DNA of 6,610 nucleotides, from the IMG/VR virus record IMGVR_UViG_2706794697_000006; one strand, 5' to 3'. The DNA is from a virus. Lineage: Duplodnaviria > Heunggongvirae > Uroviricota > Caudoviricetes. A program made the translations under genes and the position numbers. This document shows, piece by piece, positions 1 through 5,665 of this stretch. Under the pieces are notes generated by a model. The model ran no database searches and was not told the DNA's origin. It worked only from the letters and a program-made list of their open reading frames with translations. Within the stretch, counting starts at the first letter, position 1. Each line of letters opens with the position of its first letter.

Positions 1-140
1 CATTGAGATTTTCTACAATCGTCAGCGTCGTCACTCTCGTCTGGGGAATATCTCCCCGGCAGCCTTCAGGGAAAAATATCATCAGATGGCTGCTTAAAAA
101 AAGAACAAATGGTAGTGTCCGCTATTGCCAGTACACCTCA
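1..140 (+). mobile_element. IS3-family insertion sequence, right-end fragment (copy A); body lies left of the window
   Basis: Bases 1-140 are the exact reverse complement of 6471-6610. They contain the 3' end of a transposase ORF and end in ...GCAATAGCGGACACTACC...TCA-type terminus (TG...CA ends typical of IS3 family). The two flanks diverge immediately after base 140 / before 6471. Confidence 0.8.
2..97 (+). CDS. IS3-family transposase (OrfB-type) C-terminal fragment; 5' end outside window
   Basis: Frame starting at base 2 translates to IEIFYNRQRRHSRLGNISPAAFREKYHQMAA then TAA at 95-97. This resembles the conserved C-terminal tail of IS3-family DDE transposases (from memory, not searched). 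Confidence 0.75.
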   Translation: MEIFYNRQRRHSRLGNISPAAFREKYHQMAA

Positions 141-150
141 GGATAGCGGT

Positions 151-194
151 CATGTGATGCCGGTTTCCCGGTAACTCAGCACCGGTATCTGAGT
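151..194. repeat. Stem-loop pair module X1 (hairpin 160-171 plus hairpin 174-194), related to module X2
   Basis: CCGG/CCGG 4-bp stem with TTTC loop (160-171), then ACTCAG/CTGAGT 6-bp stem with a 9-nt loop (174-194), preceded by ATGTGATGC. A second copy of the same architecture lies at 372-418. Confidence 0.5.
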
Positions 195-320
195 CAACGT
201 TTTCTCTACTGGGTCATTTCCGATACGCCCTGCCTGCTGACAGGCTTTCATCACATCTGAAAATATAGCACCCTGACTGATACTGTAGTACCTAAGGTTC
301 CAGAAACTGTGATGTATCCG

Positions 321-347
321 GCACAGAAAAGCCCCTCCGGAGAGGGC
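321..347 (-). terminator. Candidate intrinsic terminator (minus strand)
   Basis: Minus strand reads GCCCUCUCCGGAGGGGC (imperfect GC-rich hairpin, 331-347) followed by UUUUCUGUG (plus-strand A-run 327-330). The stem has one bulge. Confidence 0.35.
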
Positions 348-371
348 TGGAGAGTGGCGCTATGTGCCATT

Positions 372-418
372 GCATGATGCCGGGTGCCTCCCGGTGAATT
401 CAGTACCAGCACCTGAAT
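372..418. repeat. Stem-loop pair module X2, related to X1
   Basis: CCGGG/CCCGG 5-bp stem (380-394), then ATTCAG/CTGAAT 6-bp stem with a 9-nt loop (398-418), preceded by GCATGATGC. Relative to X1 the second stem carries a compensatory C-G to T-A change. Confidence 0.5.
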
Positions 419-544
419 CCGCGATTATCCCATATACCTACTCGCTGATTGCCCCTCCGCACAGGGGGATTCACCATGCCAGTTTCTTTTAACAAACTCC
501 CCGCAAAACAGACAACTGTCAACCGTCTGAATTGTGAGACATTT

Positions 545-2470: not shown

Positions 2471-3292
2471 TTACCTAGTTACCTTTTTTAACTGCCGCTC
2501 AGCCCATGCTTCTTCAATATCAAACCGGGTCACCAGCGCATCATAAAATTTCTTAACTGTTTTTTCCCATGACGCGCGTGTTATCTGGTTTGTCACCTCG
2601 CATATAGCATTAAATGCCTCCGTTGATGGTAGTCTTTCATAGCCACGACCACCACAACGCTGGCAGTCTCTGATAACAGGCATACCACGTTTTACCGACT
2701 CTTCACGATGAATGGCGACACCACGCCCACGGCAATCCTTACAGGCGGTGGAAACCTCACCCTTTCCGCCACACTCCGGACAGGCAACTTTTACCACCTC
2801 CCTGACTTTTTTCCATTCTTCCCAGTAAGACGGATACACACCTTTCGTACACTTTGCCCATACCGGCGGCTTACCATCCGGATACTGGATCTTGTTTGTA
2901 AAAACCTCGCTTTCAATAAATTTTTTTCCGTGACAGCAGGGGCACTGTTTTTTGCTCGCCGCGCTACGGGCATAATCTTCAAACGCATACGAAGCCATAA
3001 TACGCATCACTGCCGGTTTTATTTCTGCCGGGAGTTTTCTTAACGCCGCCACGCGATCACACCGACTGAGTGCATATTCTGTCAGCAATTCTGTTGCCCG
3101 CTCTCTGTCATTCATACTAATGCCCATTTTCCCAAGGAACGCAGAAACCCCCATCTCAGCCCGATTCTGTGTCATGCCCTGCGCGGCCATCACATCAGTG
3201 ATACTCAGCGCATCTTTCGACGTTGAGGCCGATGCATCAGTCAGGCCGGGGGATTTTGGGGAGTAGTATTTCGGTAAATCTTCCAGTTTCAT
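2471..3292 (-). CDS. Q: Antitermination protein Q, long zinc-finger type (273 aa)
   Basis: The protein carries multiple CxxC motifs (CPCCHGKK, CPECGGKG, CKDCRGRG, CQRCGGRG). It sits immediately upstream of a PR'/tR'-like promoter and terminator and directly downstream of rusA, as in Qin-type prophages. Its start overlaps the rusA stop (ATGA). Confidence 0.75.
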   Translation of the reverse strand: MKLEDLPKYYSPKSPGLTDASASTSKDALSITDVMAAQGMTQNRAEMGVSAFLGKMGISMNDRERATELLTEYALSRCDRVAALRKLPAEIKPAVMRIMASYAFEDYARSAASKKQCPCCHGKKFIESEVFTNKIQYPDGKPPVWAKCTKGVYPSYWEEWKKVREVVKVACPECGGKGEVSTACKDCRGRGVAIHREESVKRGMPVIRDCQRCGGRGYERLPSTEAFNAICEVTNQITRASWEKTVKKFYDALVTRFDIEEAWAERQLKKVTR

Positions 3293-3669
3293 TTTTTGAC
3301 CTGCCCTTCAAGCATTATGGGATAAATCTTCACCCCCAGACGTCCACCAGATACTGGCTGAGCACGAACGATATTGATTTCATCAAACTGCTCATCGTCC
3401 ATTAGCAACCCCGCATGCGTCAGCGCATCCAGCGGCGCTTTCAGAATATTGTCCAGGTCACGGCGGCGCTTATCCGGTGGTTCTGCAATAATTTTTATTG
3501 CCAACCTTCCGGACAGGCTTAATTTCAGCCGCTGCTGGCGAACAATAAGCGCCACTGCCCGGCGATAACGCTCCCCGGCTTTTGATACAAAATATGTGCT
3601 GCCACGACGACGCCAGTAAGTGTTCACCGTCGGCGGGTAAGGTAAAACAAATTCTATGCGCTCGGTCAT
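3289..3669 (-). CDS. rusA: Holliday-junction resolvase RusA
   Basis: 126 aa. The translation contains DKRRRDLDNILKAPLDALTHAGLLMDDEQF and SGGRLGVKI, closely matching the conserved RusA core ([22 protein letters not shown]...DD, GGRLE) recalled from E. coli RusA. Confidence 0.9.
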   Translation of the reverse strand: MTERIEFVLPYPPTVNTYWRRRGSTYFVSKAGERYRRAVALIVRQQRLKLSLSGRLAIKIIAEPPDKRRRDLDNILKAPLDALTHAGLLMDDEQFDEINIVRAQPVSGGRLGVKIYPIMLEGQVKK

Positions 3670-4728
3670 TTATGCTTTCCACTTCAGAACACCCGAATTT
3701 CTCGCGTGCATTAAAAAACGAATCAGCAACAACAGCTGACTGCCGTGTTTCTCTTCAAAATCTTTTACTCCGGCATGTAGTTCGTTACGGCATTTACGGC
3801 ATAACGGAATAACAAACAAATCATCAGCCTTTGTTCCCATCCCTCCCAGTCCATGACCAATGATGTGATGCGGATCATCTGCCTGATTGCCACACGTCAT
3901 GCATTTCTGCGTTTTTACCCAGCGCGTGTATACAGGCATCTCTTCCCGTTGTGATTTCTGGCGCTGGAGATACTGAGCCGGTGACTCCGGATCAACGGCA
4001 ATGCTGACCACCGTCTTTTCCTGTGGTGGGTTCTGTTGCTGGTGGACGTGAGGCAGTAACGCAATATTTTTTGTGCGCTGCTTCAGTATGCTGGTGGCTG
4101 TCTGCTCTCCCGGTATGATGTCGCTTTCACTGTACACAGAGCGAATTTTTTCCGCACGCAACCCCAGCGAACGACGTAATACCGCTTCCGGTAGCGCGTC
4201 CGCCACCTGATTGCGGACCGCCCACCAGGATAATTCAGCCAGAGATAATTCACGCTCCTGCGTACCGCTTATTGCGTGACCGATGACGTCAATCATCCAT
4301 GCTGACAGGTTTTGATGAGCAAGTTGCTCGAGTGATTCGGATGTCTGGTCACGCAGCTGGTTGTCGCAGTGCCAGCACAACACCATTGCGCCGGTACCAT
4401 AACGGTGAATGACGGTTTCGCTGTGATGATAATCGCCGTGTGGCCACTGGCAGGATTTAATATGGCGCAACAGCCAGTCAGACAATGCACCAGCACCACC
4501 AGCAGCACGAATCACCCGTGCGTTACTGAAAAACGGCAGCAATGTTTTGTCTTCCACCAGCGGCTGGCGAGCGGCAGGAACGACCCCGGACGGCAGATTA
4601 CGCATGCTTTTTGGTTCCGGCTCCACCAGTATTCTGCCGTTATGGAATGCTGACATTGATTCACGGCCTGGCTTAACGATAACCAGACCGAGTTCCGGTA
4701 CCAGAACAGGTCGAAGTAATACCCGCAC
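3670..4728 (-). CDS. DUF968-like (YdfU-like) prophage protein with C-terminal HNH/zinc-finger-like motif
   Basis: 352 aa from a GTG at 4728 that has GGAGG 4 nt upstream; an alternative ATG at 4656 would give 328 aa. C-terminal motif CMTCGNQADDPHHIIGHG...CRKCRNELH. Size and position (upstream of rusA and Q) match ydfU of Qin-like prophages. Its stop abuts the rusA start. Confidence 0.7.
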   Translation of the reverse strand: MRVLLRPVLVPELGLVIVKPGRESMSAFHNGRILVEPEPKSMRNLPSGVVPAARQPLVEDKTLLPFFSNARVIRAAGGAGALSDWLLRHIKSCQWPHGDYHHSETVIHRYGTGAMVLCWHCDNQLRDQTSESLEQLAHQNLSAWMIDVIGHAISGTQERELSLAELSWWAVRNQVADALPEAVLRRSLGLRAEKIRSVYSESDIIPGEQTATSILKQRTKNIALLPHVHQQQNPPQEKTVVSIAVDPESPAQYLQRQKSQREEMPVYTRWVKTQKCMTCGNQADDPHHIIGHGLGGMGTKADDLFVIPLCRKCRNELHAGVKDFEEKHGSQLLLLIRFLMHARNSGVLKWKA

Positions 4729-5206: not shown

Positions 5207-5236
5207 AAATAAAAACAAAAACCCGCCGAAGCGGGT
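5207..5236 (-). terminator. Rho-independent terminator at the 3' end of the hok mRNA
   Basis: Minus strand: ACCCGC-UUCG-GCGGGU hairpin (plus 5221-5236) followed by UUUUUGUUUUUAUUUU (plus-strand A-rich run 5207-5220). Confidence 0.8.
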
Positions 5237-5305
5237 TAAGTGTGGGTGCATTGAGGATGCCTGCCCCATCAGAGGTGGCGAGGGATTTCTCCCCCGCCTG
5301 GTCTC

Positions 5306-5461
5306 TTACTCCTCAGGTTCGTAAGCTGTGAAGACAGCGACCTCCGTCTGGCCGGTTCGAATTCGTACCTCGCAGAGGTCTTTCCTCGTTACCAGTGCCG
5401 TCACTATGACGGTTAAACAGATGACGATCAGGGCGATTAACATCGCCTTTTGCTGCTTCAT
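5306..5461 (-). CDS. hok: Hok-family type I toxin (51 aa membrane peptide)
   Basis: Translation MKQQKAMLIALIVICLTVIVTALVTRKDLCEVRIRTGQTEVAVFTAYEPEE, which matches HokD/RelF of E. coli as recalled. ATG at 5461 is preceded by GGAGAAGCAGGCT. Confidence 0.9.
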   Translation of the reverse strand: MKQQKAMLIALIVICLTVIVTALVTRKDLCEVRIRTGQTEVAVFTAYEPEE

Positions 5462-5518
5462 AGCCTGCTTCTCCTTGCCTTTCGGCACGTAAGAGGCTAA
5501 CCTAGATTTGCCGTTCAT
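5306..5518 (-). CDS. mok: mok-like reading frame (70 codons), in-frame N-terminal extension of hok
   Basis: ATG at 5518 in the hok frame adds MNGKSRLASYVPKGKEKQA upstream of Hok. The 70-codon length and arrangement match my recollection of mok loci. Confidence 0.55.
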   Translation of the reverse strand: MNGKSRLASYVPKGKEKQAMKQQKAMLIALIVICLTVIVTALVTRKDLCEVRIRTGQTEVAVFTAYEPEE

Positions 5519-5575
5519 AGATTGAGCCTCAGATTAATGTTAAGCGTCTTGCCGGACGCGTAATGTTAACTGGGG
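5510..5575 (+). ncRNA. sok: Candidate sok-like antisense RNA (position inferred, boundaries approximate)
   Basis: Plus strand opposite the mok start. Possible promoter TTGCCT (5475-5480), 17-nt spacer, TAACCT (5498-5503). Possible terminator hairpin GCGTC-TTGCCG-GACGC at 5544-5559 followed by a weak U-rich stretch. No clean terminator, so this is weak. Confidence 0.25.
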
Positions 5576-5612
5576 CTTTTCTCTATCTGCCTTTTGGTGT
5601 TCATGCCTGAGA

Positions 5613-5665
5613 CAGATAGCCTCAAGCACCCGCTGCAATTCTACTTAACTCTCCTTTTCCCGCAA
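5613..5665 (-). promoter_or_regulatory. hok promoter and mRNA 5' end carrying the fold-back partner of the 3' fbi element
   Basis: Minus strand TTGCGG (-35, plus 5660-5665), 16-nt spacer, TAGAAT (-10, plus 5638-5643). The predicted 5' end GCAGCGGGUGCUUGAGGCUAUCUG (plus 5613-5636) is complementary to the mRNA 3' region (plus 5241-5258) with one bulge, and resembles the GCUUGAGGC 5' motif of hok mRNA. Confidence 0.55.

Follow-up and report, generated by a model that had tools for sequence, protein, structure and literature searches.

A probable tandem pair of STnc100-family small RNA genes in the moron slot of a lambdoid prophage

The window analysed here is the whole 6,610-nucleotide (nt) stretch of DNA of the IMG/VR virus record IMGVR_UViG_2706794697_000006, which, on a minus-strand reading, is the late-regulatory region of a lambdoid prophage. 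It is very likely that its positions 141-515 hold two tandem minus-strand small RNA (sRNA) genes of the STnc100 family, located in the prophage "moron" slot: gene A, a canonical member, and gene X, a diverged paralogue cut by an IS600 element. This level of confidence applies to the explanation as a whole, including both genes, the plan that they share and a mechanism taken from homologues. A preliminary description of the sequence had drawn attention to two copies of a paired stem-loop module, X1 (151-194) and X2 (372-418), and to two further GCCCCTCCG (GCCCCTCC) hairpins; all four are real, as parts of the two tandem genes and not as separate modules. Overall, the sRNA family is largely catalogued already, and what is new is modest, namely the divergent paralogue X and the evidence for a pseudoknot in the family core.

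Two genes with a shared architecture

Gene A reads as a complete canonical STnc100-family sRNA of about 156 nt, with predicted ends at 479 and 324 on the minus strand. The covariance-model search that had been suggested for the modules returned, for the X2 region, a full-length match to the Rfam STnc100 model RF02076 (319-508(-), 123.6 bits, expectation value E = 1.3e-27, model positions 1-206), well above the gathering threshold of 47 bits and in agreement with the early proposal of a small structured RNA selected for pairing. An independent, core-only covariance model (R1), constructed from 25 diverse and unrelated IMG/VR phage sequences that include no X-type or window sequence, was then searched against the whole 6.6-kb window with filters off. 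It found exactly two significant matches, gene A (372-479(-), 87.9 bits, E = 2e-21) and gene X (152-256(-), 30.0 bits, E about 1e-6), while the next best match scored 7.6 bits (E = 0.46). The match to gene X spans all 111 model positions, indicating that the core of X is complete in the window.

In gene A, an 8-base-pair (bp) closing helix, P1, pairs 479-472 with 379-372 and encloses a 5′ hairpin (467-452), a pseudoknot linker AUCAGCG (449-443), hairpin 3 (420-396, with its loop at 412-404 and the pseudoknot partner UGCUGGU at 411-405) and hairpin 4 (CCGGG-AGGCA-CCCGG, 394-380). A single-stranded tail (371-349) and a Rho-independent terminator located by a terminator scan (348-330, with a U-tract at 329-324) complete the gene. 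Module X2, which is present as described (CCGGG-tgcct-CCCGG at 380-394 and gaATTCAG-taccagcac-CTGAATcc at 396-420), supplies the two central hairpins, and both GCCCCTCC hairpins belong to the same gene as its terminator and its 5′ hairpin. The former was correctly placed at 331-347; the latter, the fourth hairpin of the preliminary description, spans 451-468 and not 461-476, having been positioned 10 nt too high. A repeat search recovers the two GCCCCTCCG units as a direct repeat (331-346 with 451-466), and the RNAfold minimum free energy (MFE) structure of gene A has the same helices as the model.

The putative promoter of gene A extends from 515 to 486, with a -35 hexamer TTGTCT (515-510), a 17-nt spacer and a -10 hexamer TTAAAA (492-487); an alternative extended -10 element, TGtTAAAAG, lies at 494-486, and the first base of P1 (479) is 6-7 nt downstream. 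This geometry matches that of PasD2, a relative from enteropathogenic Escherichia coli (EPEC) E2348/69, and the promoter stretch corresponds to conserved positions 1-30 of the Rfam model. The mapped 5′ end of PasD2, NC_011601.1:741157 (Table S6, PMC8550237), is the G of GCATGGTG, 8 nt after TTAAAA. Of the two mapped ends of PasD2, the 5′ one falls on the base that opens P1 and the 3′ one on the final U of the terminator, and the ends of gene A are placed at about 479 and about 324 because of this homology. A consensus promoter scanner that needs both hexamers called neither of the two sRNA promoters, which are proposed here because their -10 elements are conserved and because the 5′ end of PasD2 has been mapped. 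Further, reverse transcription quantitative PCR primers published for STnc_100 in outer-membrane vesicles of Shiga toxin-producing E. coli (PMC12370729) match gene A exactly at 459-478(-) and 386-405(+), bracketing the expected 93-nt amplicon.

Two small differences set this copy of gene A apart. Its terminator stem (330-348) carries a 1-nt deletion, AGCCCUCU versus AGCCCCUCU in relatives, leaving 6 pairs versus 8 in the related locus L001, and in P1 (372-379) a C-to-U change relative to close relatives creates a G-U pair; an IMG/VR contig with the same IS600 junction (L013) has both changes. In addition, a 13-nt inverted repeat, 85% complementary, links 302-314 (CAUCACAGUUUCU, just past the terminator) with 475-487 (AGAAACUGGCAUG, the leader and start of gene A), and would matter only for a read-through transcript.

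Gene X (141-256, minus strand; core 256-152) appears to be an unannotated, divergent STnc100-family paralogue with an intact core and a truncated 3′ end. Its P1 helix joins AUGUGAUG (256-249) to CAUCACAU (159-152), which the repeat search found independently as an 8-nt perfect inverted repeat (152-159/249-256). Between these strands lie a 5′ hairpin GCCUG-UCAG-CAGGC (245-232), the pseudoknot linker GUAUCGG (226-220), hairpin 3 (196-172, with the loop partner CCGGUGC at 185-179) and hairpin 4 (CCGG-GAAA-CCGG, 171-160), and P1 is followed by the tail remnant GACCGCUAUCC (151-141). Module X1 lies within this core, with CCGG-tttc-CCGG at 160-171 and aACTCAG-caccggtat-CTGAGTc at 172-196, and shares the layout of X2 as had been stated; their homology is recovered as direct repeats that relate 155-168 to 375-388 and 177-189 to 407-419. 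The RNAfold MFE structure of gene X has the same architecture as that of gene A (z = -2.5 to -2.6). With the Rfam STnc100 model, X scores 21.8 bits in the window (92-280(-), E = 0.15), and the intact X of L001 (AP022298) matches the whole model including the terminator (30.1 bits, E = 2e-4), as part of a range of 30.0-30.1 bits among intact relatives. Upstream, a putative extended -10 element, TGcTATATT (270-262), lies 6 nt before the first base of P1 (256); its sequence CAGGGTGCTATATTTTC is identical in both known X alleles, with the upstream sequence otherwise heavily diverged, and the Rfam covariance alignment places it on the -10 region of the STnc100 model.

The two X alleles share 84.6% identity, and their differences in the 5′ hairpin (GCCUG/CAGGC versus CUGCC/GGCGG) and in the terminator preserve pairing. 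Of 5426 complete E. coli genomes, 673 (about 12%) carry X, as does E. albertii, and X is intact in L001, L002 (ATCC 11775), L005, phage PhiR5_2 and E. albertii, where it has the tail GACCGCUAUCCUUCC and a terminator (AGGCCCAUCCGCUCCGGUGGGCCUUUUU; AGGCCCATCCGCTCCGGTGGGCC-TTTTT; 3997-3974 in L001). In other prophages, where a search downstream of tRNA clusters had been suggested, the module is found in A-X-B triplets of E. coli, E. albertii and phage PhiR5_2. These loci are co-directional and consist of a tRNA cluster with its terminator; a promoter, gene A and a terminator; X with its own terminator; and a promoter, a further STnc100 copy ("B") and a terminator, followed by an esterase gene or iraM and then by the lysis genes. 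Of the 123 occurrences of X, 73 have a canonical copy on either side, and this arrangement holds for most copies with enough flanking sequence.

Covariation and a proposed pseudoknot in the family core

An IMG/VR scan with the invariant hairpin-4 motif collected more than 120 loci and 140 distinct sequences. A set of 29 diverse cores, including gene A and both X alleles, was used for covariation analysis. RNAalifold predicts five helices in this set. The proportion of paired cells is 94.3%, compared to 82.1% after shuffling (none of 500 shuffles reached the observed value) and 37-45% when the pairing partners were slid, and changes on both sides of a pair occur in 19 of 28 pairs. In particular, the compensatory change that had been noted in the second stem of X1 and X2 (C-G to T-A; ACTCAG/CTGAGT versus ATTCAG/CTGAAT) is real, and this stem, helix 4 of the alignment, covaries at 7 of 7 pairs across the 29 members, which supports selection on its structure. 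Hairpin 4 (CCGGG/CCCGG) is invariant in the 27 canonical members and is uninformative for covariation. Every variable helix is supported by family covariation, and both A and X have the core fold of the superfamily, consisting of the 8-bp closing helix, the 5′ hairpin, hairpin 3 and hairpin 4. Moreover, one pair position is G-U in 19 of the 29 members. Read on the minus strand, such pairs are frequent; the opposite strand would have A-C mismatches in their place. They fix the transcribed strand, in accordance with the orientation of the promoters and terminators.

The hairpin 3 loop is the complement of the linker that follows the 5′ hairpin, and the sequences that pair differ among variants (AUCAGCA/UGCUGAU, CUGGUG/CACCGG, CCAGUC/GACUGG, AAGGUUG/CAACCUU, AGACUGACAAA/UUUGUCAGUCU and GUUCCAGCAG/UUGCUGGAGU). 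An alignment-free test across 39 non-redundant members gave a mean contiguous linker-loop complementarity of 6.95, compared to 4.60 for shuffled loops (standard deviation 0.17, maximum 5.13 in 1000) and 4.80 when loops were permuted among members (standard deviation 0.18, maximum 5.49 in 1000). Genes A and X each have 7 nt of complementarity, AUCAGCG/UGCUGGU in A and GUAUCGG/CCGGUGC in X (CCGAUGC in the second allele). These data support a linker-to-hairpin-3-loop pseudoknot in the family core, which is proposed here; the loops of the second stems in X1 and X2 are therefore pairing partners and not spacers. The pseudoknot is absent from the Rfam consensus line, and the 2026 preprint that treats PasD and STnc100 makes no use of the term (bioRxiv 10.64898/2026.05.13.724894).

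Across the family, the 5′ core is conserved, and the tail and terminator that follow P1 vary freely. Tandem copies are common. Canonical ones are 484 nt apart when X lies between them and about 253 nt apart in direct arrays of 3-5 genes. Examples of such arrays in IMG/VR are found at L143 373-988, L156 1726-2341, L189 4380-5459 and L135 2326-3350, where each gene has the conserved core with a differing 3′ tail and terminator. It is possible, though we offer it tentatively and with some doubt, that the 5′ core common to A, X and over 100 distinct phage variants is a functional pseudoknotted module, that the family combines a fixed scaffold with swappable seed cassettes in tandem arrays of 2-5, and that X represents a third subfamily beside STnc100 and PasD. 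The core may be a functional module because it is conserved far more than the exchangeable tail and terminator; it could act as a protein- or ligand-binding platform, or serve processing or stability. With its conserved pseudoknotted 5′ scaffold, variable 3′ tails and tandem arrays, the family lends itself to the study of how sRNA repertoires carried by phages diversify. In itself, the window is ordinary, containing a known sRNA and a paralogue truncated by an insertion sequence, and it opens no long-standing question. For annotation, a search based on Rfam sees one sRNA here and misses X, which is sometimes annotated as a hypothetical protein (phrog_23557).

Proposed function, known relatives and alternative explanations

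Both genes follow one plan. The -10 element of each is placed such that transcription would start at the first base of P1, and this 8-bp helix encloses the 5′ hairpin, then a segment that varies, then hairpins 3 and 4. The linker pairs to the hairpin 3 loop, and a short single-stranded tail and a Rho-independent terminator make up the 3′ end. The RNAs would be transcribed in the lysogen from their own promoters, Hfq would bind through the terminator and U-tail, the variable 3′ tail would pair with mRNAs, and the conserved 5′ core would serve as a structural scaffold. Gene A is most likely an Hfq-dependent trans-acting sRNA that pairs with its targets through its tail, and X plausibly works alike in intact loci, using its own tail GACCGCUAUCCUUCC. 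This role is proposed because of homology to EcOnc27/sRNA103 and to PasD. EcOnc27/sRNA103, an STnc100 member located downstream of stx2B in Stx2 phages, is bound by Hfq, and its overexpression raises fimZ and espA transcripts (PMC12711010, PMC7873438). E. coli EDL933 has 11 transcribed STnc100 copies, one of which (STnc100_4) was confirmed by Northern blot (PMC5331693). PasD1 and PasD2 were detected by Northern blot, and their chimeras from RIL-seq (sequencing of interacting RNAs after their ligation) map to the 3′ 50 nt, placing the seed in the tail (PMC8550237). Further, Zhu, Shabalina and Storz proposed in 2026 that PasD and STnc100 have a common ancestor (bioRxiv 10.64898/2026.05.13.724894). 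A terminator with a U-tail is present in gene A and in the intact relatives of X, and is missing from the window's X because of IS600.

Comparison with characterized systems places both genes in this superfamily. Gene A has the same fold as STnc100, together with its promoter-proximal conserved block, its GCCCCUCUCCGGAGGGGC terminator and its prophage slot; the STnc100 copy of the Sakai prophage Sp5 scores 207.7 bits. Gene X shares the whole STnc100 architecture (P1, the 5′ hairpin, hairpins 3 and 4, and, in intact copies, the tail and terminator), but its sequence has diverged in every helix and its hairpin 4 has 4 bp and a GAAA loop instead of CCGGG-AGGCA-CCCGG. PasD1 and PasD2 (EcOnc13 in E2348/69) are STnc100 relatives below the Rfam threshold that have the start GCAUGGUG and the 5′ hairpin in common with the family and occupy the same prophage region, next to esterase and holin genes. 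Their sizes were confirmed by Northern blot and their partners identified by RIL-seq (PMC8550237). They differ from A and X in having lost hairpin 4, in carrying a long and different tail with the seed UGUGAG, and in being dispersed instead of tandem. PasD2 shares only its P1 and 5′-hairpin region with gene A, and the PasD tail and seed are present in neither A nor X; comparison with the E2348/69 sequences likewise ruled out that X is PasD or PasA. PasD is validated in spite of its sub-threshold scores, and divergent superfamily members can therefore be genuine sRNAs.

Adjacent duplicated sRNA genes with a common scaffold and partly different pairing regions are also known from OmrA/OmrB, PrrF1/PrrF2 and Qrr1-5. 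These are chromosomal core genes of unrelated sequence whose conserved part is usually the seed; in the A/X family, conservation falls on the structured 5′ core, with a variable 3′ tail. IpeX of the K-12 cryptic prophage DLP12 occupies the same position in a lambdoid prophage, with a moron gene on one side and the lysis genes on the other. It is not homologous to STnc100, which has no match at E ≤ 1 in the MG1655 quuD-nmpC-essD region. The comparison of tandem sRNAs also draws on the discussion by Zhu et al. (bioRxiv 10.64898/2026.05.13.724894). The anti-sRNAs AsxR and AgvB (RF02703, RF02702) sit in this moron slot too, downstream of pR′, and form a pair with an STnc100-type sRNA, as in Sakai Sp5 (PMC4104026). 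Unlike A and X, which are co-directional and paralogous, they measure 51-60 nt, run convergently to the STnc100 copy from the opposite strand and have an unrelated fold. No Rfam match to AsxR or AgvB was found in the window (E ≤ 1) or in L001 (E ≤ 10), which rejects this identity for X, and the positive control, Sakai Sp5, yielded AsxR at 88.1 bits on the other strand in convergent orientation.

Some observations weigh against the explanation by two STnc100-family genes. Gene X remains below the 47-bit threshold of RF02076; it is a homologue and superfamily relative, and a non-member by Rfam's criterion, as is PasD (38-41 bits). Its candidate promoter is proposed from the conserved extended -10 element only, and X is known as two alleles and a few single-nucleotide variants, which limits covariation within X. 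The MFE of gene A is no better than that of shuffled sequences (z = -0.21), and the reported effects of STnc100 comprise only those on fimZ and espA upon overexpression and an in silico match to stxB. Moreover, a 33-codon frame across the X core is open in both alleles.

Four alternative explanations were weighed. We consider it unlikely that X is a decaying STnc100 pseudogene, non-functional even when uninterrupted, with A the only real gene. Its low scores with the family models (30 bits versus 88-161 bits for its neighbours), the shortening of a hairpin 4 that is invariant in the 27 canonical members, its restriction to two alleles and the certain IS600 damage to the window's copy would all fit such decay; however, every helix and the pseudoknot can still pair in both alleles, the allele differences in the 5′ hairpin and terminator are compensatory, intact copies of X have on their flanks an extended -10 element that is perfectly conserved and a terminator that is intact, and both E. 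albertii and 673 of the 5426 E. coli genomes have kept X. Low scores also characterize PasD, the experimentally validated relative (38-41 bits with Rfam, 38.3 bits with R1). An explanation in which the structures are cis elements of the late (pR′) or tRNA transcript, such as terminators or processing or stability sites, instead of trans-acting sRNAs, appears less probable still. The units are indeed on the strand of the late operon, with the tRNAs on one side and the lysis genes on the other, each ends in a terminator, and their 5′ core is conserved far above what is usual for an Hfq-dependent sRNA. Against this, each unit has a promoter-like -10 element placed for a start at P1, PasD2 has mapped 5′ and 3′ ends that fall exactly on the P1 start and the terminator U-tract, and family members are discrete Hfq-bound RNAs in lysogens.

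It is very improbable that the X region encodes a small protein, either of 33 amino acids (MKACQQAGRIGNDPVEKTLTQIPVLSYRETGIT) or, as in some phages, of 55 amino acids. Apart from the frame that is open in both alleles, this reading draws on the 55-residue version, which matches phrog_23557 (function unknown) and is a hypothetical protein in phage records. Its start codon is not conserved and reads ATA in allele 1, canonical copies have a homologous frame that ends after 11-25 codons, the family core lengths are not multiples of three, and the X frame has no apparent Shine-Dalgarno sequence and no Pfam match. The ratio of nonsynonymous to synonymous differences (pN/pS) is about 0.5, from only 8 differences, all of which lie in an RNA hairpin and compensate one another in pairing, and phrog_23557 may merely gather repeated open reading frame (ORF) calls over the X RNA. 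That any overlapping ORF (251-412 on the minus strand, 364-492 on the plus strand, or the 33- and 55-residue X frames) is coding is unlikely, as none matches Pfam and phrog_23557, for X, is the sole match. The inverted repeats are almost certainly not double-stranded DNA sites for a phage or host protein. The preliminary description had allowed for a repeated protein-binding site, and the short palindromes CCGG..CCGG do occur twice, but the covariation is long-range and strand-specific: pairing is kept across about 100 nt in P1 and between linker and loop, which is meaningless for a DNA site, and the G-U pairs on the minus-strand reading indicate selection at the RNA level on one strand. A cis-antiterminator like the put sites of HK022, suggested by two stem-loops one nucleotide apart, is disfavoured by the fact that the units end at their own terminators, and a tRNA-like reading of the four-way junction was rejected because ARAGORN makes no call there and hairpin 4 has a 5-nt loop.

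The IS600 junction and the surrounding locus

The right end of an IS600 element (IS3 family) occupies positions 1-140 on the plus strand and includes the 3′ end of orfB, its stop codon (97-99) and the terminal inverted repeat; the ends of IS600 ORF2 in pO157 and in Shigella pINV are 100% identical to this end of the window. The junction with the prophage lies at 139/140|141, within the tail of gene X, and prophage homology begins at 140. On the minus strand, the sequence reads ...GACCGCTATCC|TGAGGTGTACTGGC..., compared to ...GACCGCTATCCTTCCAGGCCCATCCGC... in relatives. Gene X is cut after ...GACCGCUAUCC, such that part of its tail and its terminator are gone, and the terminator scan found no terminator-like site that replaces the lost one in the window. 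The window's X has probably lost sRNA activity because it is without the terminator and U-tail module; Zhu et al. handled the terminator-less PasA-3 likewise (bioRxiv 10.64898/2026.05.13.724894). The same junction is present in five IMG/VR contigs (L013, L041, L057, L072 and L110) and in none of the 5426 complete E. coli genomes, and the exact junction 35-mer was not found in a one-genome-per-species collection. Past IS600, L013 continues with sequence that bears no relation to the X terminator, indicating that a rearrangement accompanied the insertion and that it was not a simple one.

Upstream of the sRNA genes, the moron slot follows the order Q, methylase, tRNAs (Ile/Arg/Arg), sRNAs. Pfam matches on the minus strand identify genes for a DUF968 protein (3670-4728), RusA (3289-3669), the antiterminator Q (2471-3292) and a DNA methylase (about 926-1898), and ARAGORN and the Rfam tRNA model both identify a tRNA-Arg(UCU) gene (661-585, minus strand). 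The terminator scan places an intrinsic terminator of this tRNA at 570-553 on the minus strand, where it stands between the tRNA cluster and gene A. In relatives, the genes downstream encode an esterase, a holin and a lysozyme, consistent with the location of this slot, and Tree et al. (2014) reported that it holds sRNA genes in at least eight Sakai prophages (PMC4104026). Positions 140-715 are 98-99% identical to prophages of hundreds of complete E. coli genomes. A run of N at 716-925 masks about 210 bp, and comparison with L001 suggests that the block should contain the second tRNA-Arg gene, the tRNA-Ile gene and the 3′ end of the methylase gene; the ORFs that span it (543-1898, 662-970 and 693-1181) are masking artefacts.

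Further observations concern the annotation of related loci. In L001, the plus strand of the locus carries a strong terminator at 3664-3685 (GCCCGCGTCTCCCAGCGCGGGC-TTTTTTT) that is convergent with the sRNAs and faces B. It has the position of AsxR/AgvB in the phages of enterohaemorrhagic E. coli without a Rfam match to either, and could belong to an unclassified convergent sRNA; this region lies outside the window and was lost through the IS600 event. RefSeq annotates a partial "hypothetical protein" pseudogene opposite gene A (L001 4226-4351), and phage records place a 55-amino-acid hypothetical protein (phrog_23557) over gene X (L006 1508-1675), both of which are probably ORF calls over RNA genes. 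Coding sequences labelled "DUF3927 family protein" lie directly upstream of sRNA genes in L005 (1106-1222) and L003 (959-1117), and the one in L005 overlies an apparent remnant of a tRNA-Arg gene. Elsewhere in the window, a hok/sok toxin-antitoxin locus is present at 5216-5631 on the minus strand, where the sok RNA (RF01794, 112.4 bits) spans 5456-5631 and the Hok/Gef ORF spans 5306-5518, and a weak, sub-threshold isrK-like match (25.8 bits) lies at 5216-5297.

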